DNA from: Bacteroidota bacterium
GTDB lineage: Bacteria > Bacteroidota > Bacteroidia > Bacteroidales > FEN-979
Reading direction: 5' to 3'
Assembly: GCA_037128705.1 (NCBI GenBank)
Contig: JBAXVX010000007.1
Location: 27,617-91,616 of the forward strand
Length of the DNA: 64,000 bases
Positions 1 through 63,573 of the stretch are shown here, piece after piece; position 1 is the first letter of the stretch, and every line of letters starts with the position of its first letter. The notes below the pieces were generated by a model that had not been told where the DNA came from, made no database searches, and saw only the letters and a program-made list of their open reading frames with translations. A program made the position numbers and the translations under genes.

Positions 1-19
1 GTGACGCGTGACACGTGAC
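1..19 (+). repeat. Heptamer tandem array (GTGACRC) x ~3, truncated by the window edge. An A-rich tract and solo ATCGT / GTAACAGGG units follow, up to ~49.
   Basis: Read directly: GTGACGC GTGACAC GTGACA, then AAAATAA ATCGTTC ATCAGTAACAGGGTAG. Same unit as the arrays at 3838-3880, 41116-41142 and 59606-59645. Confidence 0.7.
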
Positions 20-67
20 AAAAATAAATCGTTCATCAGTAACAGGGTAGTTTTTTCATAGATTTTT

Positions 68-1849
68 ATGCCGTCGGAAAGGAAAATATACTGGGCGCTG
101 ATCATCCTGCTGATTGTTTCGGCGGTGGTTCGTGGTTTTATTGCCGGCTTTATTGAATTGGGCAACGATGAGGTTTATTACTGGACCTATGCGAAATTTC
201 CCGCGCTCAGCCATTTCGACCATCCCCCCATGGTTGGCTTCGTGATCCAGTTCTTTACCCTGAACCTGTTCCTCGACAGTGAATTCTTCATACGGCTGGC
301 CTCCGTGGTACTGGGAACGCTGAGTACGGGAATGATGTTCCTGATCGGCCGGCAGATTAAAAGCCCGCTCACCGGGTTGTACGCCGCCCTTTTATTTACA
401 GCCTCCTTTTATGGATTCATCCTGAGCGGGATCTTTATTCTCCCCGATACCCCCCAGGTGTTTTTCTGGCTGGTCACGCTTTATTGCCTGATAAAATCAT
501 TGCCTGACCAGGATACAGCGCCGGAGAGCAGGAATTATCTCTTCTTCGCAGGGGTCACCGCCGGCCTGGCCCTTTTATCGAAATATCATTCGGTTTTCCT
601 GATTGCCGGGACCTTTATGTACCTTCTTTTATATAACCGGAGATGGTTCATGGCCAAGGAGACCTACGCCTTTTTCCTGATCATCATCATGCTGTTTCTT
701 CCTGTCATTTTCTGGAACATCGATAATGATTTTATCAGTTTTACCTTTCATGAAAAGAGGATCGGGATTTCCGAATCGGGGTTCCAGCCACTCTACTTTC
801 TCACCGAAGTCACGGGCCAGTTTTTTTATAATAACCCGGTGAATGTGGTAATCATCATTGGCTCGCTGATCGCGCTGATCCGAAGGAAACAGTTCATTGA
901 GGTCTCCTACAAGCGCATCCTGCTGTGGACCAGTGTCCCGCTCATCCTGGTGTTCCTCTCTTTTTCACTTTTCCGCAGCACCCTGCCACACTGGACCGGA
1001 CCGGGTTACCTGGGTCTCATCCTGATCGCAGCGGCCTGGCTGTCAGAACCAAAGATGAATGAATCAAAAATGCGCCTTGTTCCTTTACCGGTAGTCATAT
1101 CCCTGGCGTTCCTGATAACGGTAGCCGTAACCGGGGTCGGACAGATCCGTTTTGGCTGGATCCCGCTCCAGCGAATGAAAATCGATGATGTTTCTCTCGA
1201 CATGTATGGATGGAGGCAACTCGGTACGAAGTTCCAGGCAATGGTAAAATGGGATGAGGAGCACTTTCTTATCGACAAGGGATCGCCGATCATTACCTTC
1301 AGGTGGTTCCCCGCGGCCAATTTTGATTATTACCTGGCTCACAATGACCGTAATCCGGTATATGCCCTCGGGGAGATAGAGCGCATCCATAAGTACCATT
1401 GGATAGATCAGCTGCGCGGAAATCTCAAGAAGGGAAGCGACGCCTATTTTATCGCCCTGAGCGATGACTATGAAGATCCGGTGGCGTTATACGGCAACCT
1501 GTTCGATATGGTCCTTCCATCCGATACCCTGTTCATCACGCGGGGCCGCGACACAGTCCGCAAAGCATTTATTTTCAGGATGGTCGACCTGAAACAGGAC
1601 ATGGTCTTCGGCCGCGATAAATATGCAACCCCCAAAAAACAGGATACATCCGATACCCTTTCCTTTTTTCTTAACCAGATCAGGTCGGACCGCCAGTTTC
1701 TCGATGTCCTTGAAAGGAGATCGGTCAAACTGAAAATGCCCCTCGATGACCTGATCAGGGAAGAGGCTGCCAAGCTGTATGAAGAGTCAAAAGACAAGCT
1801 GGTTTTACCGGATACCCTTAAGGAAAAAGGTGACAAGGTGACAAGGTGA
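68..1849 (+). CDS. Polytopic membrane glycosyltransferase, ArnT/PMT-like (GT-C fold, GT39/GT83-like), with a soluble C-terminal domain
   Basis: 593-aa ORF with ATG start. The N-terminal ~2/3 has many hydrophobic helices and the family-typical N-terminal segment (ELGNDEVYYWTYAKFP..HFDHPPMVGF). The last codons (GDKVTR) and the TGA stop lie inside the GGTGACAR array. Confidence 0.75.
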   Translation: MPSERKIYWALIILLIVSAVVRGFIAGFIELGNDEVYYWTYAKFPALSHFDHPPMVGFVIQFFTLNLFLDSEFFIRLASVVLGTLSTGMMFLIGRQIKSPLTGLYAALLFTASFYGFILSGIFILPDTPQVFFWLVTLYCLIKSLPDQDTAPESRNYLFFAGVTAGLALLSKYHSVFLIAGTFMYLLLYNRRWFMAKETYAFFLIIIMLFLPVIFWNIDNDFISFTFHEKRIGISESGFQPLYFLTEVTGQFFYNNPVNVVIIIGSLIALIRRKQFIEVSYKRILLWTSVPLILVFLSFSLFRSTLPHWTGPGYLGLILIAAAWLSEPKMNESKMRLVPLPVVISLAFLITVAVTGVGQIRFGWIPLQRMKIDDVSLDMYGWRQLGTKFQAMVKWDEEHFLIDKGSPIITFRWFPAANFDYYLAHNDRNPVYALGEIERIHKYHWIDQLRGNLKKGSDAYFIALSDDYEDPVALYGNLFDMVLPSDTLFITRGRDTVRKAFIFRMVDLKQDMVFGRDKYATPKKQDTSDTLSFFLNQIRSDRQFLDVLERRSVKLKMPLDDLIREEAAKLYEESKDKLVLPDTLKEKGDKVTR

Positions 1850-1995
1850 CAGGGTGACAAGGTAACAGGGTGACAAAGTAATGGAGTAATGGAGTAATGG
1901 AGTAATGAAATCGAATATCGTAAATCGTAGATCGTAAATCGTATATCGTAAATTAATCAATCATTCGTCATTCGTCATTCGCCATTCGTCATTCA
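1829..1995. repeat. Composite tandem-repeat block of four arrays: (GGTRACAR)x6 at 1829-1876, (AGTAATGG)x4 at 1877-1908, (ATCGTAN)x~5-6 at 1909-1958, (TCATTCG)x~5 at 1959-1995
   Basis: Read directly and unit boundaries counted base by base. The block spans the whole gap between two convergent stop codons (TGA 1847-1849 on +, TGA 1993-1995 on -). Confidence 0.95.
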
Positions 1996-3390
1996 TTTGG
2001 GTCCTGTCATCTTTTTAGGATCAACGATGCGGGTGAATTCTTCATCGGTCAGCAAACCAAGTTCCAGGGTGGCTTCACGCAGGGTTTTATGCTCCTTGTG
2101 TGCTTTCTTGGCTATTTTGGCAGAATTGTCATAGCCGATGTGGGGATTGAGTGCCGTAACCAGCATCAGGGAATTTTCGAGATTTTTGTTGATGGCCGCC
2201 ATGTTCGGTTCGATGCCGATGGCGCAGTTGTCGTTGAATGAAACGCAGGCATCGCCGAGCAGCCTGGCCGACATCAGGAGGTTGGAGATGAGCAGGGGCT
2301 TGAAAACATTGAGCTGGAAATGGCCGCTGATACCGCCGATGTTGATGGCCACATCGTTGCCGAGTACCTGGGCGCATACCATGGTCATTGCTTCGGGTTG
2401 GGTGGGATTCACCTTGCCCGGCATGATGCTGGAGCCGGGTTCATTTTCGGGAAGCATGAGTTCGCCGATGCCGCAACGGGGACCGGAGGCCAGCAGGCGG
2501 ATGTTGGAGGCAATGTGCATCAGGCTTACCGCCAGCGTTTTCAGGGCGCCGGAGGTTTCAACCATCGCATCGTGAGCCGACAGCGATTCAAACTTATTGT
2601 CAGCGGTGATGAAGGGCAGCCCGGTGAGTTCGGCTATTTTTTTAGCCACCAGCACATCATAGCCTTTGGGTGCATTCAGCCCGGTGCCTACAGCTGTGCC
2701 GCCCAGCGCCAGTTCCGACAAATGGGGGAGGGTGTTTTTGAGTGCTTTCAGGCCGTGATCAAGCTGGGAGACATATCCTGAAAATTCCTGCCCCAGGGTG
2801 AGCGGGGTGGCATCCATGAGGTGGGTACGACCTGTTTTCACGATCTCCTTAAACTCTTCGGATTTTTTTGCCAGGGTGCCCTTCAGCAGATCCACACCCG
2901 GTATGGTATTGCCGGTAACCATCTTGTATGCGGCAATGCTCATGGCTGCGGGGAAGGTGTCGTTCGAAGACTGCGATTTGTTTACATCATCGTTGGGGTG
3001 GATCACCGTTTTGCCTTCGCCGCCCAGTTCACCGCCGTTCAGGACGTGGGCCCGGTTGGCGATCACCTCGTTGAGGTTCATGTTGGTTTGCGTTCCCGAA
3101 CCGGTTTGCCAGATCACCAGCGGGAACTGGTCATCCAGCTTGCCATCCAGGATCTCATCACAAACTTTCACAATCAGGGTCATCTTCTCTGAAGGCAACA
3201 CGCCAAGGTCGGCATTCACCATGGCTGCCGCCTTTTTTAGGATGGCCATTCCGCGGATCACCTCTTTGGGCATGGATCCTGGCTCACCAATTTTGAAGTT
3301 GGTTAGTGAACGCTGGGTTTGGGCTCCCCAGTACTTATCCATAGCAACCTCAATGGGCCCCATGGTGTCTTTTTCGATGCGTGTTTTCAT
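1993..3390 (-). CDS. fumC: Fumarate hydratase, class II
   Basis: 465 aa with ATG start. Carries the class II fumarase/aspartase signature [13 protein letters not shown] and matches the family over its full length. Confidence 0.95.
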
Positions 3391-3442
3391 ATGTATATGG
3401 TTTTTAATATGATATCGGGATGAAGGAGGTCATTTTCAGATA

Positions 3443-3787
3443 TTATTTCAGTAGAGATTCAATGTTTTCAACCGGGTCGCCTACCACCGCCCTGTACCTG
3501 CCCTCAACAATCGGGCGTTGAAGGAGCCTGGGATTCTGAAGGATGATCTTCACCCATTCATGATCCTCGAAATTCTTCCCCTTCAGGTTTTGCTTAAAAT
3601 ATTCCTCCTGCGTGCGTACCATCTCCGCCGGCTTCCTGTTCAGTTTTATCAGCAGGATCTCCATCTCCTTTTCCGTCAGCGGATTCCTGATGTATTCAAC
3701 CACTTCGAACGCATTTCCGGAATCCTTCAGGAATTGCAGCCCGGCCCTGGATTTTTTGCACTGGGGATGGTGGTAGATCTTTAACAT
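3443..3787 (-). CDS. ArsC/Spx-family protein (YffB-like, CxxS type)
   Basis: 114 aa. The N-terminus MLKIYHHPQCKKSRAGLQFL matches the ArsC/Spx/YffB fold family. The ATG directly abuts the repeat array. Confidence 0.8.
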   Translation of the reverse strand: MLKIYHHPQCKKSRAGLQFLKDSGNAFEVVEYIRNPLTEKEMEILLIKLNRKPAEMVRTQEEYFKQNLKGKNFEDHEWVKIILQNPRLLQRPIVEGRYRAVVGDPVENIESLLK

Positions 3788-3880
3788 ATTTACGATATAC
3801 GATTTACGATATACGATTTACGATATACGATTTTTTTCGTCACGTGTCACGCGTCACGTGTCACGCGTCACGCGTCACGC
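3788..3880 (-). repeat. Composite array read on the minus strand: (GTGACRC)x6 at 3838-3880, A7 at 3831-3837, (TCGTAWA)x6 at 3789-3830
   Basis: Read directly. It fills the 97-nt spacer between the prfB stop (3883-3885) and the ArsC-family start (3787). Confidence 0.95.
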
Positions 3881-3882
3881 TT

Positions 3883-4972
3883 TTATGCATTACCATATTC
3901 CATCAGGTAGGATTTGATAAACGCGGAGAGGTCGCCATCGAGCACAGCCTGGGTATCCGACGTTTCCTGTCCCGTGCGCAGATCCTTGACCATTTTATAG
4001 GGATGCAGCACATAACTGCGGATCTGGCTGCCCCACTCGATCTTTTTCTTCCCGCTCTCGATCACTGCGATCTTCTCACGCTGCTTTCGGAGTTCGATTT
4101 CATACAACTGCGATTTCAGCAGTTTCAGCGCTTTTTCGCGGTTTTGTCCCTGTGAGCGGGTCTCCTGGCATTCGATGATGATCCCCGAAGGTTCGTGTTT
4201 CAAGCGCACCGCGGTCTCCACCTTGTTTACATTTTGTCCGCCCGGACCGCTGCTGCGAAAGGTGTCCCAGCTGATCTCGGCCGGGTTGATGTCGATCACA
4301 ATGTCGTCGTTGATGATGGGATAGACATAGACTGACGCGAAGGAGGTATGCCGTTTGTGGTTGGAATCGAATGGGGAGAGCCGCACCAGCCGGTGCACGC
4401 CATTCTCGCCCTTGAGGTAGCCATAGGCATAGTCGCCGTCAAACTCCAGGGTCACCGATTTGATCCCCGCCACATCCCCCTCCTGGAAATCCACCTCGGC
4501 GATTTTGAAGCGGCTCCGCTCACCGTACCGGATATACATGCGCATGAGCATCTGAGCCCAATCCTGGCTTTCGGTGCCTCCCGCCCCGGAATTGATCTGG
4601 ACGATGGCGCCGAGCCGGTCTTCAACACCGCTCAGCATGTTGCGGAATTCCAACTCTTCTATAAGCGCCAGTGTTTCGTTGTAGTGATTTTCAAGCTCCT
4701 CTTCAGTTCCTTCACCCTGGATGTGGAATTCCCACATCACCATCAGGTCTTCCTGCGTTGAAAGCGCTTTTAAAAAGGCATCCGTCCAGAGTTTTTTATC
4801 ACGGATGGCACGCTGGGCTGTTTCCGCGGCTTTCGGATTATTCCAGAAATCGGGAGCCTGTGAAAGTTGTTCTTCTTCTGCTATCTGGGAAAGTTTCTTG
4901 TCGATGTCAAAGGTACCTCCTCAAGACGTCGAGCCTGGTCTTCAGGTCTCTCAGTTGGTCTTGTGCTATCAT
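3883..4972 (-). CDS. prfB: Peptide chain release factor 2, expressed through a programmed +1 frameshift
   Basis: Frame-1 leader ATG 4972 reads [21 protein letters not shown] then TGA (4907-4909). After a +1 shift it continues [25 protein letters not shown]... into the 3883..4743 ORF. SPF (RLSPFDS) and GGQ ([10 protein letters not shown]) motifs are present. Confidence 0.93.
4906..4921 (-). promoter_or_regulatory. RF2 autoregulatory +1 frameshift site: AGGAGG (SD-like), 3 nt, then CTT TGA C
   Basis: The minus strand reads TTG AGG AGG TAC CTT TGA C, which is the canonical RF2 recoding cassette. Confidence 0.9.
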
Positions 4973-4973
4973 G

Positions 4974-5468
4974 TCAGATTTTAAGTTCTTTTATTATTTC
5001 GGCAGCCAGGTCAAATTCAAAACCCTTGCCAATTACAAAAGTGATAATTTTTTCGCGGATGTTCAAGTTTTTTCCCGGTTTTATTTCTGACTTTTTTTTC
5101 AGAACCAGTTCGCGCACGGTTTTCCGGTAATCTTCCGGGCTGATCTCCAGCAGGGCCGACCGGATGATGATGTCAGGAATCTTGCGTCCCTTCAGCTCGT
5201 AACCGATCTTTAACCGGCCCCATTTGTTGATCCGGAATTTACCCCTGACGAAGGTTCGGGCAAAACGTTCATCATCAATAAAACCTTCATCTTTCAGCGA
5301 TTTCATCAGTGTGCTGATCCTGCCCCCGGGAACCTTCCATTCAGCCAGCTTCTTCTCTGCATCCCACGCACACCGCTCCTGGTAAGCGCAATAGCGGCTG
5401 ATCCTTTCATAGATGCCTGCAGGATCGGGAGCGTGCTTCATCGCGGTATTGTCCTTATCTTTTTTCAT
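4974..5468 (-). CDS. recX: RecX-family regulatory protein
   Basis: 164 aa. Has the RecX-like N-terminus (ISRYCAYQERCAWDAEKKL) and a helical-repeat body. The stop lies 1 nt from the prfB start. Confidence 0.8.
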   Translation of the reverse strand: MKKDKDNTAMKHAPDPAGIYERISRYCAYQERCAWDAEKKLAEWKVPGGRISTLMKSLKDEGFIDDERFARTFVRGKFRINKWGRLKIGYELKGRKIPDIIIRSALLEISPEDYRKTVRELVLKKKSEIKPGKNLNIREKIITFVIGKGFEFDLAAEIIKELKI

Positions 5469-5538
5469 CCCCTGTAAAGCTGAAAGAACCGTTTTTTTGG
5501 TTTCTGTTTGAAAAGTAAAGATAATATTTACTTCTCAC

Positions 5539-5580
5539 GAAAAAAAGAAAATGCCCCCGTAGCACTTAGGTCACGGGGGC
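5539..5580 (-). terminator. Rho-independent terminator downstream of the YceI gene
   Basis: On the minus strand, GCCCCCGT (12-nt loop) ACGGGGGC is followed by ATTTTCTTTTTTT. A second 7-bp stem (AGCCTGT/ACAGGCT) lies just upstream at about 5604-5625. Confidence 0.75.
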
Positions 5581-5659
5581 AAAGTCATTTAGCTACGGAT
5601 GCGCAGCCTGTTAACGGGGACAGGCTCTTGTATCAGAGGGGCTGCCAGGCGGTATGCTA

Positions 5660-6256
5660 TTATTTAGCCTTGATAAATTCCGCATTGATGTTGATTGCAA
5701 CTTCAGGGCCTACGACGGCGCCTCCGGTTTCAAGCAGCGAATTCCATTTTAGGCCGTAATCAAGACGGTTGATGGTGGTGGATGCCCTGAAGCCGGCCCG
5801 GGTGTTTCCGTAGCCATCTTTCGCGGTGCCGCCATAGGTTACGGCAAACTTTACCCGTTTTGTTACCTCGCGGATGGTCAGGTTGCCTGTAAGTTCATAT
5901 TTGTTGCCCGAGAGTTTCTTCATCGAGATACTTTTGAAGGTCATGCTGGGAAACTTTTCAGCGTTGAAGAAATCATCTGACTTCAGGTGCTTGTCACGCT
6001 GTTCATTGTCCGTATTGATGCTGGCAATATCCACACTGAATTCGATGCTTGCATCGGTAAAATCGGGTTTTGCAGCAGTCAGGGTCCCTGTAAATGATTT
6101 GAAATTCCCCTCCACTTCCGAGATGACCATGTGGGTTACGGTGAATTTGACATTTGAGTGGGAGTTGTCTACGGCCCATTTGGTTTGAGCTTCACTTTTG
6201 CCGAAGATCATCATGGTGATCACCAGGGCGAATAAAAATTTAACTGTGTTTTTCAT
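5660..6256 (-). CDS. YceI-family periplasmic (polyisoprenoid-binding) protein
   Basis: 198 aa with a signal peptide. Has the YceI-type segment WAVDNSHSNVKFTVTHMVISEVEGNFKSFTG. Confidence 0.85.
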   Translation of the reverse strand: MKNTVKFLFALVITMMIFGKSEAQTKWAVDNSHSNVKFTVTHMVISEVEGNFKSFTGTLTAAKPDFTDASIEFSVDIASINTDNEQRDKHLKSDDFFNAEKFPSMTFKSISMKKLSGNKYELTGNLTIREVTKRVKFAVTYGGTAKDGYGNTRAGFRASTTINRLDYGLKWNSLLETGGAVVGPEVAININAEFIKAK

Positions 6257-6280
6257 TGTTGCTTGTTTTAGGTTGTTTGT

Positions 6281-7099
6281 TTAACTTATTTTAATTGAAG
6301 TCATTGAAAGTGAGCCATAGATGGTTTTATCATTGAAAAACGACACAGACTCATTTTTTTCCTGCATGGCCAATACATAAAGCAATGGAAGGAAGTGTTC
6401 GGGTGTTGGCACGGAAAGGCTTATGTCAGGCCCGAGCGTGGTGTAGTCCTTAAGTTTATTATGGTTCCCCTCCAGGATCAGTTTTTTTAATTTTTCGTTG
6501 GATTCATTTGCCCATTCATGCCCGCCATCGGGGTTGTGCCAGTTTATCATGCGGAGATTATGAACCATATTCCCGCTTCCGATCACAAGGATCCCTTTGC
6601 GCCGTAATCCGGCAAGTTGCCTTCCGAGGTCATAATGGGCCGAAGGGGAGAGGGTATAATCAAGGCTGAGTTGTAAAACCGGTATGGAAGCCTCAGGGAA
6701 CATATGCGTAAGGATACTCCAGCTTCCATGATCAATGCCCCAGCTTTCATCCAGGCCCACCTGTGAAGCCGGAGCTTCATCGCGGGTTTCGTAAGCCACG
6801 GGGATACTTCCGGGGGCAGGATACTGGACCCTGAAAAGTTGCTCGGGGAATCCATAAAAATCATGGATGGTGCGCGGTTTAGGCATGGCTGTGACCATCG
6901 TTCCTGCGGTTTCCCAGTGTGCAGAGATACAAAGGATGGCCCGGGGCTTCGGGAGGGATTTGCCCAGAGATTGCCAGGCCGCGGTAAATTCGTTGTTTTC
7001 AATGGCATTCATCGGGCTCCCGTGACCCACGAACAGCACCGGCATCAGGTTGGAGCTTTGGGTGCTTCCGGCGGAGGGGTTAAATTCTTTCAGGTTCAT
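6281..7099 (-). CDS. Class III extradiol dioxygenase (4,5-DOPA dioxygenase / YgiD-like)
   Basis: 272 aa. Has PVLFVGHGSPMNA and ISAHW motifs typical of the LigB/YgiD family. Confidence 0.85.
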   Translation of the reverse strand: MNLKEFNPSAGSTQSSNLMPVLFVGHGSPMNAIENNEFTAAWQSLGKSLPKPRAILCISAHWETAGTMVTAMPKPRTIHDFYGFPEQLFRVQYPAPGSIPVAYETRDEAPASQVGLDESWGIDHGSWSILTHMFPEASIPVLQLSLDYTLSPSAHYDLGRQLAGLRRKGILVIGSGNMVHNLRMINWHNPDGGHEWANESNEKLKKLILEGNHNKLKDYTTLGPDISLSVPTPEHFLPLLYVLAMQEKNESVSFFNDKTIYGSLSMTSIKIS

Positions 7100-7187
7100 G
7101 GTCTGTTGTGTTTCGATGAATGACGATGCAAAATTGCAACCTCTTCAGTGAATGGAGGTAACACAAAACAGAAATAGAGTGGTACTT

Positions 7188-8009: not shown

Positions 8010-8032
8010 TGTTTCAGGGGGTTACCTTCCCG

Positions 8033-11884: not shown

Positions 11885-11939
11885 AAGAGTCTAATTTTCA
11901 TGGTAAAATTAGAGATTTATTTTGTTTCTCAAAAAGCCG

Positions 11940-11974: not shown

Positions 11975-13108
11975 ATGAAAAAATATTTGTTCATCCTGTT
12001 AGTAGGGGCAATCCTCGCTTCATGTACAGGAAATAAGGATCAGTTTACCATCAAGGGAAAGGTCAACGGCGTTGATACAGGAATGATCTACCTGCAAAAA
12101 TTCGATGTTGACCAATGGGTCAAAGTCGATTCATCAAAACTTGAAAAAGGAGCATTTTCATTCAAAGGATCCGCTGCTCTTCCGGAGATGTGGCACATCG
12201 TCATGGATGAAAAGCAAATCATACTTCCCGTGTTTGTTGAAAATGCCGGAATCAAGGTAGAGATCTATGTTGACAGCCTTGATAAATCGTTGATCACAGG
12301 ATCTCCCTCCCATGATATTTACCAGAAGTATCTCACCCTGAATGAGTCCGTGTATAAAAAGATGGATGAGAACACCATGGAGTGGAAGAAAGCCAGAGAT
12401 GCCAATGATTCGGCAACCATGAAACGCACCGATTCGGTTTCGAATGAGCTGGATAAGGAGATGAAAAAGCAGCTCCAGGATTTTGCCAGGGCCAACAACA
12501 AGACTGTTGTTTCTCCCTACCTGGTTATACGCAATAGCTGGCAATTTGAGCTCCCCGACCTGGAAGAACTACTTGCCGCCATGGATACCAGTCTGAATGG
12601 TTCCCAATATGTGCTGGCTCTGAAGAAACGCATTGAAATCCTGAAGCGTGTTGAAATTGGGCAGATGGCTCCTGATTTTACCTTGAATGATACCACCGGG
12701 GCCCCTGTTGCGCTGTCATCCCTGAAAGGGAGGGTGCTGCTGGTTGATTTCTGGGCATCGTGGTGCAGTCCCTGCCGGGCTGAGAATCCCAACGTGGTGA
12801 AGGCTTACCAGGCTTATCACAAGAAGGGATTTGATGTGCTGGGCTGTTCGTTCGACCAGAACCGGGAAAAATGGCTGAAAGCTTTAAGGAATGATAAACT
12901 TACCTGGACCCATGTTTCAGACCTGAAGGGATGGGGCAATGCTGCAGGCAAACTTTATGGCATCAATTCCATCCCGGCAAATGTCCTGCTCGACAAGGAT
13001 CAGAAGATCATCGGCCGTAACCTTCGCGGTGCGGATCTGATGAAGAAGCTGGAAGAGATTTTCGGACCGGCGGTTCCTGAGAAAAAGGGAAAAAAGGCAA
13101 CCAGGTAA
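11975..13108 (+). CDS. TlpA-family thiol:disulfide oxidoreductase lipoprotein (DUF4369 N-domain + thioredoxin fold)
   Basis: 377 aa. Has a lipobox (ILASC) and the redox motif WASWCSPC. The stop TAA lies in the first GGTAACAG unit. Confidence 0.88.
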   Translation: MKKYLFILLVGAILASCTGNKDQFTIKGKVNGVDTGMIYLQKFDVDQWVKVDSSKLEKGAFSFKGSAALPEMWHIVMDEKQIILPVFVENAGIKVEIYVDSLDKSLITGSPSHDIYQKYLTLNESVYKKMDENTMEWKKARDANDSATMKRTDSVSNELDKEMKKQLQDFARANNKTVVSPYLVIRNSWQFELPDLEELLAAMDTSLNGSQYVLALKKRIEILKRVEIGQMAPDFTLNDTTGAPVALSSLKGRVLLVDFWASWCSPCRAENPNVVKAYQAYHKKGFDVLGCSFDQNREKWLKALRNDKLTWTHVSDLKGWGNAAGKLYGINSIPANVLLDKDQKIIGRNLRGADLMKKLEEIFGPAVPEKKGKKATR

Positions 13109-13156
13109 CAGGGTAACAGGGTAACAGGGTAACAGGGTAACAGGGTAACAGGGTGA
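13104..13156 (+). repeat. Octamer tandem array (GGTAACAG)x6 + GGTGA
   Basis: Read directly, with units counted 13104-13151. It contains the upstream stop (13106-13108) and runs into the downstream GTG/ATG start (13153/13156). Confidence 0.95.
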
Positions 13157-39658: not shown

Positions 39659-41107
39659 ATGGAATCCGAAGCAAATAAGATCCTTGACGAAGTTACCCAG
39701 GGTGATTACAAGTATGGCTTTGTCACGGACATCGATACGGAATTTGCGCCGGTTGGACTTTCTGAAGATACCATTCGCTATATCTCCGCAAAAAAAAACG
39801 AACCGGAATTCCTTCTCGAATTCCGGTTGAAGGCATACCGTCACTGGCTTACCATGTCCATGCCCAAATGGGGTCACCTGAAGGTCGCGCCCATCAATTT
39901 TCAGGATATCATCTTTTATGCCGCGCCAAAGCAAAAGAAAGAACTTGCGAGCCTGGATGAGGTTGATCCGGAGTTGCTGGCAACTTTCACCAAGCTCGGG
40001 ATCTCGCTCGATGAACAGAAAAAGCTGTCGGGGGTGGCTGTTGACGCGGTAATTGACAGTGTATCCGTTAAAACCACCTTCTCCGAAACGTTATCAAAAC
40101 ACGGTATCATTTTCTGCTCCTTCAGCGAGGCAGTGCAGAATCATCCTGACCTGGTGAAACAATACATGGGATCGGTGGTTCCCTACACCGACAACTATTT
40201 TGCAGCACTTAATTCCGCCGTGTTCAGCGATGGCTCCTTTTGTTTTATTCCGAAAGGGGTTCGCTGTCCCATGGAGTTATCGACCTATTTTCGTATCAAT
40301 GCTGCCAATACCGGGCAGTTTGAACGTACCCTTATCGTAGCCGAAGAGGGAGCCTATGTCAGTTATATGGAGGGCTGTACGGCGCCCCGGCGAGATGAAA
40401 ATCAGCTGCATGCAGCCATTGTTGAGATCGTGGCCATGAAGGATGCGGAAGTAAAATATTCAACTGTGCAGAACTGGTATCCCGGTGATAAAAACGGGGT
40501 GGGAGGGATCTACAACTTTGTTACCAAACGCGGCATCTGCAAGGGAAGCAATTCGAAGATCAGCTGGACGCAGGTGGAGACCGGATCGGCCATCACCTGG
40601 AAATATCCCAGTTGTATCCTGATGGGAGATCATTCGGTGGGAGAGTTTTATTCTGTTGCCGTGACAAACAACCATCAGCAGGCCGATACAGGAACTAAAA
40701 TGATACACCTGGGCAAAAATACCCGGAGTACCATCATCTCAAAGGGAATTTCGGCCGGGAAGAGCAACAACTCCTACCGGGGACTGGTCCGCATCTCAAA
40801 GAATGCGGTCAATTCGCGCAATTACAGCCAGTGCGATTCCCTGCTTCTCGGCTCCATGTGCGGGGCCCATACCTGGCCTTACATCCAGGTTGATAATAAA
40901 TCGTCGATCGTGGAGCATGAGGCCACCACGTCAAAAATTTCGGAAGATCAGCTTTTTTATTGCCAGCAGCGGGGTATTTCTGCCGAAAGCGCCATCGGGC
41001 TTATTGTAAACGGATATGCGAAAGAGGTTTTAAAGCAGCTGCCCATGGAGTTTGCCGTAGAGGCCCAGAAACTGCTGTCGATCAGCCTGGAGGGAAGCGT
41101 GGGATGA
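39659..41107 (+). CDS. sufB: Fe-S cluster assembly protein SufB
   Basis: 482 aa. Full-length SufB character, followed by sufC and sufD. Confidence 0.95.
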
Positions 41108-41142
41108 CGAATCGCGTGACACGTGACGCGTGACGCGTGACC
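41108..41142 (+). repeat. Solo CGAATCG unit + heptamer array (GTGACRC)x4 (41116-41142)
   Basis: Read directly. It begins immediately after the sufB TGA (41105-41107). Confidence 0.9.
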
Positions 41143-52517: not shown

Positions 52518-52525
52518 TACCTTTG
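52518..52525 (+). promoter_or_regulatory. -7 promoter box TACCTTTG
   Basis: Exact TAnnTTTG match, ending 15 nt upstream of ATG 52541. Confidence 0.5.
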
Positions 52526-52540
52526 CAAAAATTTTCTAAA

Positions 52541-52873: not shown

Positions 52874-52888
52874 TGCATTTGAAACTAT

Positions 52889-52935
52889 GTCACGCGTCAC
52901 GCTTTTCCGTCACGCGTCACGCTTCATGTGTCACG
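52889..52935 (-). repeat. Interrupted heptamer array: plus strand reads (GTCACGC)x2 ttttcc (GTCACGC)x2 ttcatgt GTCACG, then T7
   Basis: Read directly. This is the reverse orientation of the GTGACRC family. The 16-nt super-unit GTCACGCGTCACGCTT occurs twice, 20 nt apart. Confidence 0.9.
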
Positions 52936-52943
52936 TTTTTTTA

Positions 52944-52951
52944 TACCTTTG
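52944..52951 (+). promoter_or_regulatory. -7 promoter box TACCTTTG
   Basis: Exact TAnnTTTG match, ending 21 nt upstream of the dxs ATG at 52973. Confidence 0.5.
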
Positions 52952-52972
52952 CCCACCTAATTGATCAGAACA

Positions 52973-54874: not shown

Positions 54875-54937
54875 CATCTCACCGATTCAATCATTCCGGT
54901 AAACCAGTTTTCCTGATCAGGCTATCTGTCCGGGTTA

Positions 54938-55336: not shown

Positions 55337-55449
55337 GCTCAGGCGTTTTATAATTTACCCTGCAAGGTATTATAATTTTAAACATCACTGTTGCCCATGA
55401 TGAATTGGTTAAAAAGATATCTCTATTTTTGAATTCAAATTATCATGTG

Positions 55450-56247: not shown

Positions 56248-56251
56248 CCCG

Positions 56252-57001: not shown

Positions 57002-57032
57002 GGCAACGGTTATTGGTCACAATCATAATTCA

Positions 57033-57647
57033 TTAACTGGAAAGGGCAGGCATTTTGCCATCATACTGCGTATCATTCAGTAATTTAAGCATAAAATCAG
57101 CCACATCTGCACGGGGAATGCTTCTTGAAGCCGGAATTTCGAGGTTCACCTTGTAGGAGTTGGTTTTTGGTGAATCGGTAAGCATGGTTGGACGAAGGAT
57201 CACCCAGTTGGCGCTGCTTTCGCGGATAATGTCGGCCTGGCGGCGTTTATCGGCAAATACATGACGCAGAAACAGGGGCATGAACACCTTCCCGAACCAG
57301 AAACCGCTGTCATTCCCCAGGATCCCGGCAGACGACATGCAGATAAACCGTTTGACCCCCGATGCTTTCATGGCATCCAGTATGTTTTTTGTGCCATCGG
57401 AAAGCACGGTATTGGGCTTGTTTATGTTCACGCCAAGTGCACAGAGGACTGCCGCCTGGCCTTCAACAGCCAGTTTGACTTTATCGGCGTCCAGGATATC
57501 ACCCTCGATGACCCGGAGATTTTTATGCTGGATGGGAACTTTGGAGGTCACCCGGGCAAAGGCTGTTACCTCATGACCCTGGTTCAGTGCCTGGTAGATA
57601 ATCAGGATCCCCGTCTTTCCGCTCGCACCAAATACTGCTATTTTCAT
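57033..57647 (-). CDS. NAD(P)H-binding protein (atypical SDR, NmrA / flavin-reductase-like)
   Basis: 204 aa. MKIAVFGASGKTG Rossmann start, typical of the NAD(P)-binding domain family. Confidence 0.8.
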   Translation of the reverse strand: MKIAVFGASGKTGILIIYQALNQGHEVTAFARVTSKVPIQHKNLRVIEGDILDADKVKLAVEGQAAVLCALGVNINKPNTVLSDGTKNILDAMKASGVKRFICMSSAGILGNDSGFWFGKVFMPLFLRHVFADKRRQADIIRESSANWVILRPTMLTDSPKTNSYKVNLEIPASRSIPRADVADFMLKLLNDTQYDGKMPALSS

Positions 57648-57795
57648 GGGTTATCCATTTTTTTGAAGTAAACGATAATTTCTCCACTAAATTACAATTT
57701 TTCTCCATTTCTCTAGCCCAATTCATGTAACTAAGTACGGGATCTTCGGTTCACCCTTCAATTGAAAATATTCTATCTTTATAAAAATTTTTTCA

Positions 57796-59600
<1,805 letters not shown>

Positions 59601-59616
<16 letters not shown>

Positions 59617-59685
59617 CAAAAAAATCGTGACACGTGACGCGTGACAAAAAATATTGTAAATCGTAAATCATACATCGTAAATTTT
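59601..59685 (+). repeat. Composite array: [ATC (GTGACRC)1-2 GTGAC A6-7] x2 (59603-59651) followed by (ATYGTAA)-type units x4 (59653-59681)
   Basis: Read directly. It contains the permease stop (59614-59616) and ends 12 nt before the tauE-family ATG. Confidence 0.92.
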
Positions 59686-59696
59686 AAAAGAGTCTC

Positions 59697-60479
59697 ATGT
59701 CAGTCACCACAATCATCGTAATCATCTTAGCCGGCATCCTGGTCGGCTTTATCAACACCCTTTCAGGAGGAGGTTCGGTGATCAGCCTTTCCCTCCTGTT
59801 GCTCCTGGGACTCCCGGCAAACATTGCAAACGGAACAAACCGGATCAGTATTTTTTTCCAAACCCTCTCCTCGGTTGGCAGTTTTACCCGCCAGAAAATG
59901 TTTACGGATCTCCGCCCTGTGTGGCTGGCCATCCCGGCAACCATTGGGGCCATCCTTGGGGCTTATGTGGCTGTTGATGTAAATACCCGGGTTATTGAAA
60001 TCGCCATGGCAACCTCCATGGTCATCATGTTGTTCTTCCTGTTTTACAAACCTGATAAGTGGCTCAAAGAAAACCCCGGACTTCTCTCGGGCCCTGTCAG
60101 GTGGTGGCAACTGGTCATCTTTTTCATGGTTGGTTTTTATGGCGGATTTATCCAGGTGGGGGTTGGTTATTTTTTATTGATGGCGCTGGTATTGGGAACC
60201 GGGTATGACCTGGTGAAGGCCAATGCGGTAAAAAACCTGATCGTCTTTTTCTACGCAATATTTGCCTTGCTTGTCTTTATGATTGATGGAAAGGTGAATT
60301 ACCTTTATGGCATCATCCTTTCGGTGGGAAGTATGATCGGTGCTCTGGTCGCCTCCTACCTGGCTGTAAAAAAGGGAGGCGGATTTATCCGTGCGGTCAT
60401 ATTGTTGTCAGTGGTATTGACAATTCTGCAACTTTCAGGATTGATTAACTTTACCACCCTGCTGAAATACATATTGTAA
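59697..60479 (+). CDS. TauE/SafE-family anion exporter (sulfite exporter family membrane protein)
   Basis: 260 aa, about 8 TM helices, with glycine-rich TM segments typical of TauE/SafE. Confidence 0.82.
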   Translation: MSVTTIIVIILAGILVGFINTLSGGGSVISLSLLLLLGLPANIANGTNRISIFFQTLSSVGSFTRQKMFTDLRPVWLAIPATIGAILGAYVAVDVNTRVIEIAMATSMVIMLFFLFYKPDKWLKENPGLLSGPVRWWQLVIFFMVGFYGGFIQVGVGYFLLMALVLGTGYDLVKANAVKNLIVFFYAIFALLVFMIDGKVNYLYGIILSVGSMIGALVASYLAVKKGGGFIRAVILLSVVLTILQLSGLINFTTLLKYIL

Positions 60480-60510
60480 CATTTGCAAGTGGGATTTAGA
60501 ACCATCACGG

Positions 60511-61629
60511 ATGAATAAAATGAACAGGATAACCATTGGAATGAACCCGGGACCTGCGCGCCATTCAACCCTTCGCGGGTACCATTTTGGGATGATCGGT
60601 TGCCTGGTGCTGTTTTTCTTGCCCGGGATTTTAATTTTTGCACAGCCCGGGGCTCCTGTTGCAAAATCATCAGCCCCCGATTCCGGTAAATGGGCCCTCG
60701 TGATACACGGAGGTGCTGGAGGACCGGCCAGGGGAACCATGTCGGCCGAATCGGAAAAGGAATACCTGGTGAAGCTGGAGGAGGCGCTTAAACGGGGCTC
60801 TGATATTCTTGCCGCGGGTGGCAGCAGCCTGGATGCAGTGGAGAGGGTCGTTCGGTTCATGGAGGATTGTCCCTTGTTTAATGCCGGGAAGGGAGCGGTG
60901 CTGGATGAGGAGGGGAAAGCAGAACTTGATGCTGCCATTATGGACGGTAGAACAGGGATGGCCGGGGCGGTTGCCGGGGTCAGTGTGATCAAGAACCCGG
61001 TTACGGCAGCACGTTGCGTAATGGAGAAATCCAACCATGTGCTGCTGATTGGAGCAGGAGCTGAAAAATTTGCAAAAGAACATGGACTTGACCTGGTCGA
61101 TCCTTCCTATTTCATAACCCCTGAACGGCTGAAAGCCTGGGAAAAATGGAAATCTGGAACTCAGACAAAACCTGCTGCTCCTGCAGACAAGCCTGGAAAT
61201 TCAGGGCCTGACGCTGAGAAACATGGTACAGTGGGAGCGGTCGCTTTGGATCAGCAGGGCAATCTCGCAGCAGCCACATCCACAGGCGGGATGACCGGAA
61301 AAATGGTTGGCCGGATAGGGGATTCGCCCATCATCGGTGCCGGAACCTATGCGAACAATCAAACCTGCGCCGTTTCGGCAACGGGTCACGGTGAGTATTT
61401 TATCCGGAATGTGGTAGCTTACGATCTTTCTTCGCTGATGGAATACCGCGGACTATCGCTTGAAGAGGCAGGTAAATCGATTATCATGGATAAGCTGGTC
61501 CGTCAGAAAGCCAACGGCGGATTGATCGCGGTGGACCGGGAAGGAAACATCAGCATGCCGTTTAATACCAATGCCATGTTCAGGGGTGTTGCAGCCTCAG
61601 ACGGGAGACACGAAGTGGCAATATATTGA
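60511..61629 (+). CDS. Isoaspartyl peptidase / L-asparaginase (Ntn hydrolase, plant-type asparaginase family)
   Basis: 372 aa. LVIHGGAG and the autoprocessing site HGTVGAVALD. A possible later start is M at 60592, which would give a signal peptide. Confidence 0.88.
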   Translation: MNKMNRITIGMNPGPARHSTLRGYHFGMIGCLVLFFLPGILIFAQPGAPVAKSSAPDSGKWALVIHGGAGGPARGTMSAESEKEYLVKLEEALKRGSDILAAGGSSLDAVERVVRFMEDCPLFNAGKGAVLDEEGKAELDAAIMDGRTGMAGAVAGVSVIKNPVTAARCVMEKSNHVLLIGAGAEKFAKEHGLDLVDPSYFITPERLKAWEKWKSGTQTKPAAPADKPGNSGPDAEKHGTVGAVALDQQGNLAAATSTGGMTGKMVGRIGDSPIIGAGTYANNQTCAVSATGHGEYFIRNVVAYDLSSLMEYRGLSLEEAGKSIIMDKLVRQKANGGLIAVDREGNISMPFNTNAMFRGVAASDGRHEVAIY

Positions 61630-61631
61630 CG

Positions 61632-62384
61632 ATGATGAGAGCATTTAAAATCAGGTATATCCAAATCCTTTTCCTTGCCATATCGGTGACAGCAGGGTTC
61701 ACCTCCTGCCGGAAAGAGGCTGTTCAGCCCTCCAAAACCGAATATTACCTGGTCAACAATACAAGGCACTGGTTTGTTTTATATTATTACAATGAAAGAC
61801 GGATCCAGGATTCCAGCAGGATTCCACCACACGCCAAATTTCAGATATATCAGGCGACAGGTGTCGCCGGGAACAGGTCACTGGAATCCCTGGTTGGCCA
61901 GCGAATGATCCGGCTGGTGGATGAACACAACGTGGACTGGCTTCCCCGGATCTCGGATACAAACAAATGGTCGGATTTGAAATTACCTGCAGGATCCGGA
62001 ACGAGGGAATTGTATTTTATCCTGATGAATCCACTCGACGATGAGATGCCCCGGATTCAGCGCCTCGGGTTGGTTAAAATTTTCCGTGTTTCGCAGGGCC
62101 TTGCCTACCTTGTGGTACTTTCATCTGTTTTGGGGCTGTTCTATATGCGGCTCAGGTTCAAATCCCTTTATATCCTGGTGGCTGTTTTTCTTAATTTTCC
62201 GGTGATCTGTTACACGGCCGATTTCGGATATTTCATCCGGTACTCACTTGATCCATGGTTTATTATCCCCAATTGGGTTCTGGATTCCGCGCAGTATTAT
62301 GTGCAGTTCTCGATCCCGGTGGGTGCCATGATCGTATGGGCCCTGCTGATCGGCCGGAAGTTGCTGCAAAATGGTAAGAATTGA
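61632..62384 (+). CDS. Hypothetical lipoprotein-like N-domain fused to a 4-TM C-terminal region
   Basis: ~250 aa. Signal peptide and lipobox (GFTSC) with C-terminal hydrophobic helices. I recognise no family. Confidence 0.5.
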   Translation: MMRAFKIRYIQILFLAISVTAGFTSCRKEAVQPSKTEYYLVNNTRHWFVLYYYNERRIQDSSRIPPHAKFQIYQATGVAGNRSLESLVGQRMIRLVDEHNVDWLPRISDTNKWSDLKLPAGSGTRELYFILMNPLDDEMPRIQRLGLVKIFRVSQGLAYLVVLSSVLGLFYMRLRFKSLYILVAVFLNFPVICYTADFGYFIRYSLDPWFIIPNWVLDSAQYYVQFSIPVGAMIVWALLIGRKLLQNGKN

Positions 62385-62394
62385 GAAGGAGGAA

Positions 62395-62892
62395 TTACTG
62401 TTTATCGTACTGCTGAATTTCGTCGTGCACATATTCAAGCAATACCCCAGCCTGCGTAAACATCACTTCCGATTCTTTTGAATCATGGTATTTCCGTTCA
62501 CAAACAACGCGCAAAATGCCGCAATTGATGATAAGCATGGCACAGGTGCGGCAGGGCGTCATACGGCAATACAGGGTTCCCTTATCCAGGGAAATTCCCC
62601 TGCGGGCAGCCTGGCAGATGGCGTTTTGTTCGGCATGCACGGTGCGCATGCAATGCTGCGTTGTACGGTCATCCTCATGCATGACCTTTTTCATCAGATG
62701 ACCAACCTCATCACAATGAGGCAATCCCTGCGGAGAACCGACATAGCCGGTCACCAGTATCTGCTTGTCGCGGACAATAACGCAGCCACTGCGGCCACGA
62801 TCACAGGTGGCACGGGTTGATACCGTACGCGCAATTTCCATAAAATATTCATCCCAGGATGGACGGACGTAGGCTGTGGGTTCCATAGGCAT
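62395..62892 (-). CDS. dCMP deaminase (ComEB/CMP-dCMP deaminase zinc-binding family)
   Basis: 165 aa. SWDEYFM.. N-terminus and zinc motifs HAEQNA and PCRTCA. Confidence 0.88.
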   Translation of the reverse strand: MPMEPTAYVRPSWDEYFMEIARTVSTRATCDRGRSGCVIVRDKQILVTGYVGSPQGLPHCDEVGHLMKKVMHEDDRTTQHCMRTVHAEQNAICQAARRGISLDKGTLYCRMTPCRTCAMLIINCGILRVVCERKYHDSKESEVMFTQAGVLLEYVHDEIQQYDKQ

Positions 62893-62923
62893 TTATAAAG
62901 TCAAAGTGAATGTACAAATTGTT

Positions 62924-63514
62924 TCATGATGATGTCGGCGGCTGAGGATCATTTAAATTTTTTCCGATCTGGCTGAGGATTTTTTCGACCTGAAGAAACA
63001 GATCCTCCCTGGAGCCATCATTGTTCAGGACAAAGTCAGCCCGGCTGATACAAGCCCGGAGATTTTGTTTGTTCGGATCGGTGGCATTCATCTCCCTGGT
63101 CTCATTTTCAATGAATGTGTCGAAGGAGATCTTATCCGTTTCCGACGACCGCTGCACAATGCGTTCGTACCGCAAACCAGGATCCGCATCCACGGCAAAG
63201 AGGAAAAATTGTCCCTTCTTCCGTAACGAATCGATCTCGCCCGGAGTCCTGATGCTTTCAATGATGCAGTTTTTTCCAACCTGTGCAGCGTCGAAAAAAA
63301 GCTGATCGGTTACATACGACGGACCATGTTTGCTGCGTAATTCGTTTGCAACGACCACCATGCTGTCACGGTTTTCGGCCATGCCCCGCAGGTGGATCTC
63401 TTTCAGCAGAAAGGCCCGCACCGAATAGTGATCAAAACCCTTATGCTTTTCAAGGTATTCAACCACGGTTCCTTTCCCGGCACCCAGTGTTCCTGTTATT
63501 CCGATGATTATCAT
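62924..63514 (-). CDS. P-loop nucleotide/nucleoside-monophosphate kinase-like protein (dephospho-CoA-kinase-like fold)
   Basis: 196 aa. Walker A GITGTLGAGKGT at the extreme N-terminus. The substrate cannot be told from sequence. Confidence 0.6.
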   Translation of the reverse strand: MIIIGITGTLGAGKGTVVEYLEKHKGFDHYSVRAFLLKEIHLRGMAENRDSMVVVANELRSKHGPSYVTDQLFFDAAQVGKNCIIESIRTPGEIDSLRKKGQFFLFAVDADPGLRYERIVQRSSETDKISFDTFIENETREMNATDPNKQNLRACISRADFVLNNDGSREDLFLQVEKILSQIGKNLNDPQPPTSS

Positions 63515-63524
63515 GCAAGATTGT

Positions 63525-63573
63525 TAATTCGTCATTCGCAATTCATCATTTGTCATTCGTCATTCGTCATTCC
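63525..63573 (-). repeat. Heptamer tandem array (TCATTCG)x7 on plus, which reads (CGAATGA)x7 on the gene-sense minus strand
   Basis: Read directly, with units counted. It begins 1 nt after the LOG-family stop (63575-63577), and 10 nt separate it from the kinase ATG (63514). Confidence 0.92.

Follow-up and report, generated by a model that had tools for sequence, protein, structure and literature searches.

Tandem heptamers and octamers in the intergenic gaps of a Bacteroidales genome: hypervariable microsatellites of an already described repeat class

The window analyzed here, a 64,000-nt stretch of contig JBAXVX010000007.1 from a Bacteroidota bacterium of the order Bacteroidales (assembly GCA_037128705.1, positions 27,617 to 91,616), carries arrays of 7- and 8-nt tandem repeats between its genes. 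The arrays were located with Tandem Repeats Finder (TRF) at a low threshold, and each was then read directly in the sequence. In total, 13 modules of period 7 or 8 were found across eight intergenic gaps, with 2.9 to 6.9 copies per module. These are the same eight gaps, at the same positions, that a first-pass annotation made from the letters of the window had named. By our own arithmetic, the modules sum to about 520 nt, i.e., about one seventh of the roughly 3.6 kb of intergenic DNA. The five unit families of that annotation were all present and are referred to as F1 (GTGACRC), F2 (ATCGTAN, e.g., AAATCGT in another phase), F3 (CGAATGA), F4 (GGTRACAR, as GGTAACAG or AAGGTGAC) and F5 (AGTAATGG). 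They are not independent, however, since all of them fit N3-4 + [G/A]T[G/A]A (the N3-4-GTRA core) and grade into one another. Gene identities were taken from precomputed Pfam hits on matching contigs. The SprA_N, Por_Secre_tail and Peptidase_C25 genes on the window contigs indicate a type IX secretion system, and metagenome-assembled genomes (MAGs) with matching repeat families bear Bacteroidales labels. On these grounds, the organism was assigned to Bacteroidota, probably Bacteroidales; it is uncultured and comes from metagenomes of anoxic freshwater lakes.

The first array (1..20, plus strand) consists of 2.9 copies of F1, followed by an A-run and one AAATCGT unit, and lies 48 nt ahead of the start of a PMT-family glycosyltransferase gene. 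Four modules occupy the convergent gap between this gene and fumC. F4 (AAGGTGAC, 6.2 copies, 1827..1876, plus strand) includes the TGA stop codon of the glycosyltransferase gene (1847-1849), and the last seven or so residues of the protein (KGDKVTR; 1827-1849) are an array-encoded tail that the outgroup orthologues lack. F5 (3.9 copies, 100% identical, 1877..1907) and F2 (AAATCGT/ATATCGT, 6.6 copies, 1908..1953) are also on the plus strand. F3 (TCATTCG on the plus strand, 4.9 copies, 1961..1994) lies on the minus strand, the sense strand of fumC, and begins at the native fumC stop (MTGPK*; triplet 1993-1995). Between prfB and an arsC-family gene, both modules are on the minus strand: F1 (CGTCACG on the plus strand, 6.1 copies, 3838..3880) sets in 2 nt past the prfB stop and is followed by A7, and F2 (ATCGTAT/ATCGTAA; TRF unit ATTTACG/ATATACG; 6.5 copies, 3788..3833) abuts the arsC ATG.

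The entire gap from the stop of one TlpA-like gene to the start of the next, both of which encode thiol-disulfide proteins, is occupied by F4 (GGTAACAG, 6.4 copies, 100% identical, 13104..13154, plus strand). This array provides the TAA stop (13106-13108) and the last three codons (VTG; 13100-13108) of tlpA-like 1, a tail that is missing from the outgroups. Past the sufB stop, in the gap flanked on its other side by sufC, the array 41108..41141 (plus strand) starts with one F3-like unit (ATGACGAAT), which has TGA in common with the stop codon (41105-41107), and continues with 4.1 copies of F1 (41113-41141). The array 52889..52935 (minus strand) comprises degenerate F1 blocks with A-runs (68% matches). 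It is antisense to both neighbours, a FeS_assembly_P gene and dxs, and lies 15 nt beyond a stop and 37 nt ahead of the dxs start. Between an amino-acid permease gene and a TauE-family gene, two F1 blocks with A7 between them (59601..59646, plus strand) include the TGA stop of the permease gene (59614-59616), and F2 (3.9 copies, 59656..59682, plus strand) ends 14 nt ahead of the TauE ATG. The last array, F3 (6.6 copies, 63527..63572, minus strand), begins 1 nt past the stop of a LOG/LDcluster4 gene and ends about 10 nt before the ATG of an AAA_18 kinase gene. The stop codon thus belongs to an array for four genes (glycosyltransferase, fumC, tlpA-like and permease), as had been claimed. The claimed distance of 0-5 nt to a flanking stop does not apply to the array at the very start of the window, whose Nramp stop lies 24 nt before it and outside the window, although proximity to stops was otherwise found.

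In a lag self-match scan of the window, long arrays were seen at periods 7 and 8 only. Nine period-7 and three period-8 arrays had at least three copies, as compared to zero and two, respectively, in 20 mononucleotide shuffles combined. None lay inside the 47 genes based on open reading frames (ORFs) or inside the Pfam-supported calls, in line with the earlier claim that conserved coding sequence is spared. Every unit has a stop triplet (TGA, TAA or TAG) on one of its strands and is stop-free on the complement, except for the F2 variants ATCGTAT and ATCGTAC, which are stop-free on both strands. The statement that each array sets stops in all three frames of one strand and none on the other held for 12 of the 13 modules. 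The exception, the module 59656-59682, has one sense frame without a stop and a single stop on the antisense strand. One-strand-only stops occur in about 37.5% of random heptamers of like composition, and the purine fraction of the stop-bearing strand ranges from 0.57 to 0.75 across the five families. The antisense ORFs listed at 1468..1860 and 3844..4155 have their starts on the stop-free strand of an array and are spurious, as had been proposed. Since the array stops close the ORF within the first one to three units, copy number cannot alter the protein.

When the 10-kb flanks were included (84 kb), the arrays were co-directional with transcription in eight of nine gaps (two-sided binomial probability of 0.04), the additional gap being in the flank, where another F3 array sits at the 5' end of a LOG gene. 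The start-adjacent F2, F4 and F3 arrays of the window lie on the coding strand, the array 52889-52935 on the non-coding strand. Arrays were present in none of 7 divergent gaps versus 7 of 39 other gaps of the window, numbers too small for significance, and one divergent-gap array lies just outside. This is the CGAATGA array at the 5' end of the LOG-family gene, in the gap between PMI and LOG-LDcluster4 (L162:9245-9278, just past the window end; retrieved loci and contigs are denoted by L numbers). The called ATG of the gene falls within this array, which has about 5 copies in the window strain and 20-22 in a sister lineage (L141:9569-9721; L142:9569-9707). Every two units spell out a mini-ORF, MTNDE*, on its sense strand.

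Rfam was searched for a prior description and gave zero matches at the gathering threshold in the whole window. The predicted structure of the arrays in the sense transcripts was not significant against shuffles (z-scores of -0.9 to +1.7): F2-F5 were less structured than their shuffles (z of +1.1 to +1.7), and F1 folded to about -23 kcal/mol via its palindromes, which the shuffles equalled. Terminator-like sites occurred at shuffle frequency and were not linked to the arrays, the sole array-associated case being a marginal 5-bp stem. The fold z-scores and terminator counts confirmed that the arrays are not classical terminators, and on the same grounds an intrinsic terminator or a hairpin like the repetitive extragenic palindromes (REP) and bacterial interspersed mosaic elements (BIME) was ruled out. 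Sites with a sigma-70-like promoter consensus were at shuffle frequency and none was array-specific, in a scan that does not cover Bacteroidota promoters. A clustered regularly interspaced short palindromic repeat (CRISPR) array was ruled out by the contiguous, spacer-free units of 7-8 nt, versus repeats of 24-48 nt with unique spacers. Likewise, a phase-variation contingency locus was ruled out, with the arrays lying behind stops or between housekeeping cistrons and the protein unaffected. A replication-strand explanation was rejected, too, as both orientations occur within 64 kb and track gene direction. The GC skew is flat. The unit families of the window contain no run of three or more G, save GGG at some F4 unit junctions, and TAACTGA arrays were absent from the TRF output of the window.

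The palindromes reported for F1 were present, with ACGCGT occurring ten times and CACGTG five times within arrays, each formed every 7 bp. Outside the arrays, CACGTG was absent from about 83 kb (the window plus L158:1-9930 and L162:1-9240), where 3.3 sites were expected from a maximal-order and 12.7 from a first-order Markov model, and ACGCGT had 3 sites. Such figures could point to a function at the DNA level, e.g., protein binding sites, a nucleoid-structuring element or restriction-modification sites, and heptameric direct repeats are reported as DNA-binding sites of SARP regulators in Streptomyces. However, F1 alone forms palindromes and F2-F5 do not, the orientation of the arrays follows the transcription of their neighbours, which a symmetric site would not need, and the divergent (promoter) gaps of the window hold no arrays (0/7). 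In addition, the CACGTG deficit may stem from restriction avoidance or from a general depletion of ACGT cores, which accounts for part of it, and the sequence sample behind it is small. A DNA-level function is considered highly improbable. The sites GACGTC and CTCGAG were strongly depleted in the same 83 kb as well.

More than 20 further contigs, derived from various samples and assemblers, encode proteins identical to ones encoded in the window, and copy number was found to differ between these strains. Beside an identical 377-aa TlpA-like protein, the GGTAACAG array has 3, 4 or 6 copies, and one NCBI scaffold has an N-gap precisely at this array. For the permease/TauE gap region, the length is 110 nt in the window, as compared to 131 or 166 nt elsewhere among the strains. 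It varies by 7-nt units, with 2-4 of them in each F1 block, and by a 35-nt higher-order unit that consists of A7 and four heptamers and is present once or twice. At the place of the F1 array in the sufB/sufC gap, L148/L152, a sister lineage with an identical SufC, has a CGAATGA/CGAATTA array, and the F1 block of the window is flanked by one F3-like unit on each side. Thus, one family replaced the interior of another at this locus. The gap with the degenerate array at 52889 was of equal length in four other strains, whereas pure arrays vary; the arsC/prfB and 63527 arrays were identical across the available strains. The arrays are hypervariable microsatellites. They are not assembly artefacts, as they recur in more than 20 independent contigs, though some of these are interrupted or have N-gaps at the arrays. 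In short-read assemblies, contig ends or N-scaffolded joins coincide with arrays, e.g., at L003:8172-8359, at the end of L160 and at the start of L146. Fragmentation of MAGs is to be expected at such sites, and copy numbers from single assemblies need caution.

Syntenic relatives were obtained by a RecX-based scan of metagenome contigs, with RecX identities of 92, 90, 76-74, 68 and 58-55% and gene order kept. Nearly all of them have arrays in the convergent gap between the glycosyltransferase gene and fumC, but with differing units: AAGGTGAC, AGTAATGG, AAATCGT and TCATTCG in the window, TCATTGG in L125, GTGACAC and GTCATTG in L130, GTGTCCC in L131, and GTCATGAG, CCCTACCT and the 16-mer CTCTACTTCCCTACCT in the group with 57% RecX identity; in L133, the gap is essentially array-free. 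The end of fumC (MTGPK*) is constant in all relatives, and the arrays begin 0-2 nt past this native stop. Nearer relatives have an F1 array, an A-run and an F2 array between prfB and arsC, and in L131 the stop-free CGGGACG replaces F1. The same gap is 2 nt long in L136, is 13 nt long in L130, where it consists of a single AAATCGTAAAT, and contains a perfect GC hairpin (CCCGGGGTGAAGCCCCGGG) in L133 and L135 (57-58% RecX identity). Judged from these sequences, the junction tolerates very different fillers. In L131, gaps that hold arrays in the window are occupied by stop-free variants (ACGGGAC, CGGGACG). The tlpA gap of the outgroups is 31-36 nt long and has no array, and outgroup gaps overall are array-free with 2-36 nt. 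Thus, the arrays are dispensable at these junctions. They are lineage-specific expansions that persist by drift and homogenisation, not by sequence conservation, and at least one of them appears to have been seeded from a native single copy.

Between tlpA2 and ruvA, where the gap in the window is 71 nt, the outgroups have an additional 1.3-2.1 kb with extra genes (L136:17580-19760; L133:16915-18220; L135:17660-18722). These genes encode a SIR2-family deacylase, a four-helix protein of the S23 intervening-sequence type and a methyltransferase-like ORF. Every junction of the extra genes holds arrays of one family (AGAAGTT/AACTTCT) in both orientations, and in L135 the region contains the inverted pair (AAGTACG)9 and (ACTTCGT)9.

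Outside this lineage, (GTGACRC)3 was found in at least 118 stretches of GTDB representative genomes (596 Gb) from more than 10 phyla, whereas about 2 were estimated by chance. Many matches were from freshwater Bacteroidales MAGs, others from MAGs labelled Vulcanimicrobiota, Synergistia, Nitrospirota, Verrucomicrobiota, Planctomycetota and Chloroflexota, and from some Streptomyces. None of these loci was conspecific with the window by blastn, and only distant protein matches were obtained. The 118 loci contain 392 arrays of period 7 and at most 32 of any other period. F2, F3, F4 and F5 of the window are present in other Bacteroidales MAGs. Predicted viral contigs of IMG/VR (L165-L191, many with a GC content of about 0.6) bear F1 or F3 arrays and numerous further heptamer arrays, with 93 period-7 arrays in 27 loci altogether, and L175 has AATGACG at several loci plus AAATCGT. 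A single array in L014 grades from CGTGAAA via CGTGAAG and CGTAATT to CGTAAAT along its length; thus, families can interconvert.

This distribution might be explained by active dispersal, in which composite blocks (F4n-F1n-A7-F2n) are copied between loci, and perhaps from one genome to another through phages, by a mechanism that is either dedicated or hitch-hiking, and slippage only adjusts their length later. The repetition of one module order at non-orthologous loci in different MAGs would fit, as would the F1 array within an older F3 array at sufB/sufC, the excess of (GTGACRC)3 over chance, the viral contigs with F1, F3 and F3 together with AAATCGT, and the outgroup extra genes bracketed by single-family arrays. 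On the other hand, the window has neither terminal inverted repeats or target-site duplications nor associated transposase or reverse transcriptase genes, the unit gradient in L014 speaks for evolution in situ, and ectopic recombination among arrays with shared units yields the same picture. Moreover, given about 1,200 heptamer classes and the abundance of arrays in the databases, any class may give about 100 matches. Active dispersal is regarded as unlikely.

For the orientation statistics in other genomes, genes were called by an ORF heuristic at low-GC loci, and high-GC loci were excluded because calls there were unreliable. The co-orientation with the upstream gene claimed for the window did not extend to these genomes: in co-directional gaps, 58 arrays were sense and 77 antisense, and orientation depended on position within the gap instead. 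Among the units of other array-rich genomes, the stop triplets TAA and TAG were not enriched, only TGA, and specifically GTGA. Only 3 arrays had their stops on a strand other than the purine-rich one, so these two properties are confounded; stop-free arrays were few (7 to 5).

Short tandemly repeated repetitive (STRR) sequences of cyanobacteria, reported by Mazel et al. in 1990, are said to comprise several tandem-heptanucleotide families dispersed over many intergenic loci of one genome. Their units are CCCCAGT, TTGGTCA and CAACAGT, and the TCATTGG/ATTGGTC unit of the relatives L125, L130 and L029 is a rotation of TTGGTCA. The window arrays, with five families in eight gaps of 64 kb and more in the 10-kb flanks and in relatives, are STRR-like, as the first-pass annotation had stated. 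They differ in their host, which belongs to the Bacteroidales instead of the heterocystous cyanobacteria, in their units and in the inclusion of octamers. Similar heptamer simple sequence repeats (SSRs), GGGAATC in Xanthomonas and GGGGA(C/T)T in Nostoc, are intergenic to 89-93%, lie on the coding strand 0-50 bp from or overlapping a stop, and are found upstream of ORFs on the non-coding strand (Rehm 2015, PMC4692102). They are depleted between divergent genes, are mostly transcribed, occur in inverted pairs, and hold the same gaps in sister species with extensive variation in length and sequence; no function was identified for them (Rehm 2015, PMC4692102). Since their units contain no stop codon, this placement rule is independent of stops. 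The window arrays resemble them in lying on the coding strand at stops (8/9 gaps), as do arrays at 3' ends in other low-GC genomes (61 sense to 24 antisense). The SSRs of Rehm 2015 are stop-free, rich in G-tracts, G-quadruplex-forming and preferentially of four units, whereas the window units have T[GA]A and no G-tracts, and are 7- and 8-mers of several families joined head-to-tail.

The supposition that no equivalent had been described in Bacteroidota was not borne out. Arrays of TAACTGA and other heptamers, with a sporadic distribution over phyla, are known from Beggiatoaceae, Cyanobacteria and five Bacteroidetes genera (Gramella, Aequorivita, Elizabethkingia, Flexibacter and Paludibacter), the latter with multi-heptamer intergenic assemblages that are absent from the gaps of close relatives (MacGregor 2015, PMC4679880). 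The stop logic was not novel either, as the same paper argues that forward repeats put stops in every frame and so cannot reach more than 18 nt into the end of an ORF, and that their complement can be translated. As in the window, these repeats are intergenic heptamers with all-frame stops on one strand and no predicted RNA structure, and contigs break at them. Differences lie in the unit, in the strain-level copy numbers given here, which that paper does not contain, and in placement: in Beggiatoaceae they are mainly located just upstream of start codons with 2-6 copies, while most window arrays begin at stops. Long simple sequence repeats (LSSRs) are over-represented units of 5-11 nt, most commonly heptamers, with units that are not multiples of three excluded from coding sequence and polymerase slippage proposed as their cause (Mrazek et al. 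2007, as summarised in PMC4679880 and PMC4692102). The window arrays share these traits, being far beyond shuffle expectation, dominated by period 7 and excluded from genes; however, the LSSR is a statistical class, not a mechanism, and says nothing of stop proximity, module order or shared cores. Contingency SSRs also show slippage-driven copy-number polymorphism within species. They mostly have units of 1-5 nt and lie in ORFs or in promoter or 5' untranslated spacers of surface or host-interaction genes, although 7-bp repeats are reported upstream of the H. influenzae hmw genes. The window arrays, in contrast, have 7- to 8-nt units behind the stops of housekeeping genes (fumC, prfB, sufB) and do not switch frames. 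Cyanobacteria, Xanthomonas, Beggiatoaceae and some Bacteroidetes are therefore known to carry this repeat class, and the window is a well-resolved example of it, not a new phenomenon.

Taken together, the arrays are probably microsatellites of the STRR/LSSR type, arising by slippage and by unequal or ectopic recombination, with selection acting as a filter on the positions and orientations that persist. Of the roles offered by the first-pass annotation, that of slippage-prone neutral microsatellites is the one favoured by the strains and relatives, which show gain and loss of units and blocks, drift and homogenisation of units between species, replacement of families and short array-free outgroup gaps. 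According to this explanation, replication slippage and unequal or ectopic recombination would create and turn over the arrays, and loops of 7-8 nt should also escape mismatch repair. Turnover would take place in short, probably transcribed spacers past stop codons and between cistrons. Selection would filter rather than design: 7- or 8-nt units could not persist in ORFs, and an array touching a 3' end would survive only if its purine-rich, T[GA]A-bearing sense strand closes the frame within a few units. Units beside a downstream start would usually be rich in A/T and lack start codons, as F2 and pure GGTAACAG are. The periodicity would keep the local stop and start context through changes in copy number, so that such changes would be nearly neutral and at most shift intercistronic spacing. 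Finally, units common to many loci would permit ectopic conversion, from which the recurrence of families and module order might follow.

Alternatively, the arrays might exist as selected, frame-independent stop cassettes that end ribosomes in all frames after frameshift or read-through, a role which the first-pass annotation had put forward. The all-frame sense stops of 12/13 modules with none antisense, the four genes that use an array triplet as their stop, the sense bias within 40 nt of 3' ends in other low-GC genomes (61:24) and the limited share of random heptamers with one-strand-only stops (37.5%) agree with it. However, three units would be enough, yet arrays reach 6-22 copies; stop-free arrays sit at the equivalent positions in L131, and the stop-free GGGAATC obeys the same placement rule in Xanthomonas (PMC4692102). 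Among units, only GTGA, not TAA or TAG, is enriched, the stop strand is confounded with the purine-rich strand, and array-free relatives are viable. Survivorship predicts the bias as well, since antisense arrays at an ORF end would lengthen the protein, as argued in MacGregor 2015 (PMC4679880). Given the stop-free arrays at the same sites, the enrichment of GTGA alone, the purine confounding and the array-free relatives, a selected cassette is judged very unlikely, and the all-frame stops are read as a condition for sitting at an ORF end, not as the purpose of the array.

Several observations weigh against an origin by slippage and recombination alone. First, pure slippage leaves unexplained why 8-9 loci within 84 kb draw on the same five families, why all of these families have the N3-4-GTRA core in common and why the F1 unit is present across phyla. 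Second, the orders stop, F1, (A-run), F2 and F4, F1, A7, TTGGTCA recur at non-orthologous loci of Bacteroidales MAGs; for instance, L034 has a stop followed by F1 and F2, and L029 has F4, F1, A7 and TTGGTCA. Third, the same gaps remain array-filled over deep divergence, while most gaps never hold arrays. Fourth, position and orientation are coupled in other genomes, with 61 sense and 24 antisense arrays within 40 nt of a 3' end as compared to 6 and 49 within 40 nt of a 5' end. Fifth, of all tetramers, GTGA shows the strongest enrichment across 111 other heptamer families (43% vs. 6% expected), a figure biased by the choice of loci through a GTGA unit. Sixth, repeats in MAGs labelled Vulcanimicrobiota and Synergistia have GTGA and TCAC arms that fold to long hairpins (z-scores of -5.5, -3.9, -3.8, -2.2 and -1.0). 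Thus, the module grammar, the GTRA core, the persistence in the same gaps and the hairpins in other phyla keep an RNA-level role and active dispersal alive.

An RNA-level role would mean that the arrays act in cis as an unstructured, purine-rich platform for a cooperative single-stranded-RNA-binding protein with a footprint of about 7 nt (CSD/Csp-, S1-, HutP- or TRAP-like), or as a termination-reinitiation spacer, with copy number tuning the flanking cistrons. This is possible, though not probable. The 7-nt period and the conserved 3- to 4-nt core may resemble HutP-, TRAP- or Csp-like binding arrays. Co-orientation with transcription in 8/9 gaps on both DNA strands within 84 kb, the order of F1, A-run, F2 and ATG kept here and at non-orthologous loci, the GTRA core in every family and the lower structure of F2-F5 relative to shuffles (z of +1.1 to +1.7) would all be expected from such an element, and arrays make up the whole region upstream of the arsC and tlpA2 starts. 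Binding of S1, Csp or CsrA was proposed for TAACTGA repeats (MacGregor 2015, PMC4679880), and deletion of a heptamer altered the activity of a recO reporter in Nostoc/E. coli constructs, with no mechanism given (bioRxiv 10.1101/2022.06.06.494920). On the other side stand the array-free gaps of 2-36 nt at identical operon junctions of the outgroups, the free turnover of units with loss of the core in L131, the copy-number polymorphism within the species and the opposite orientation near 5' ends in other genomes; moreover, the literature names no binding protein from any organism.

The hairpin-forming repeats were found in co-directional gaps of MAGs labelled Vulcanimicrobiota ER1/ER2/CTOTU7676 and Synergistia CAYSLJ (GC content of about 0.37), two groups that have unit families in common. 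Their architecture is a stop followed by (NNNGTGA)n, a linker, (TCACNNN)m, a Shine-Dalgarno (SD) sequence and ATG, the stop codon being the first triplet of the array (L008, L031, L040, L059, L060, L062, L084, L086, L087 and L094). These hairpins look functional in the genomes concerned. The window genome is without GTGA/TCAC pairing, and its exceptional array 52889-52935 resembles the 5'-proximal class. An extension of the RNA-level role to a cross-phylum class of N3-4-GTRA heptads, acting as register-tolerant intercistronic elements, could be envisaged. In the low-GC MAGs labelled Vulcanimicrobiota or Synergistia, the hairpin between the GTGA stop array and the TCAC pre-SD array could couple termination to downstream initiation, while in the SD-less Bacteroidales just the purine-rich arm would be retained, single-stranded and serving as a platform for binding or scanning, and copy-number slippage would serve as an evolvable dial on operon stoichiometry. 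This extension is speculative and rather unlikely.

The window locus offers an unusually tractable example of heptamer arrays. Across dozens of independently assembled strains and graded syntenic relatives, defined operon junctions show how an array is born from one native copy and expands, how its units drift, how one family replaces another and how blocks are duplicated at a higher order. For annotation, it matters that such arrays yield spurious antisense ORFs, real stop codons, short C-terminal tails and broken short-read assemblies.

A further observation concerns prfB, the release factor 2 gene beside the prfB-arsC gap. At about 4900-4925 (minus strand), it has a canonical programmed +1 frameshift site, CTT TGA C, with an SD-like AGGAGG ahead. 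The N-terminal 22 or so codons are in the other frame, and the listed 286-aa ORF 3883..4743 represents the downstream part only.

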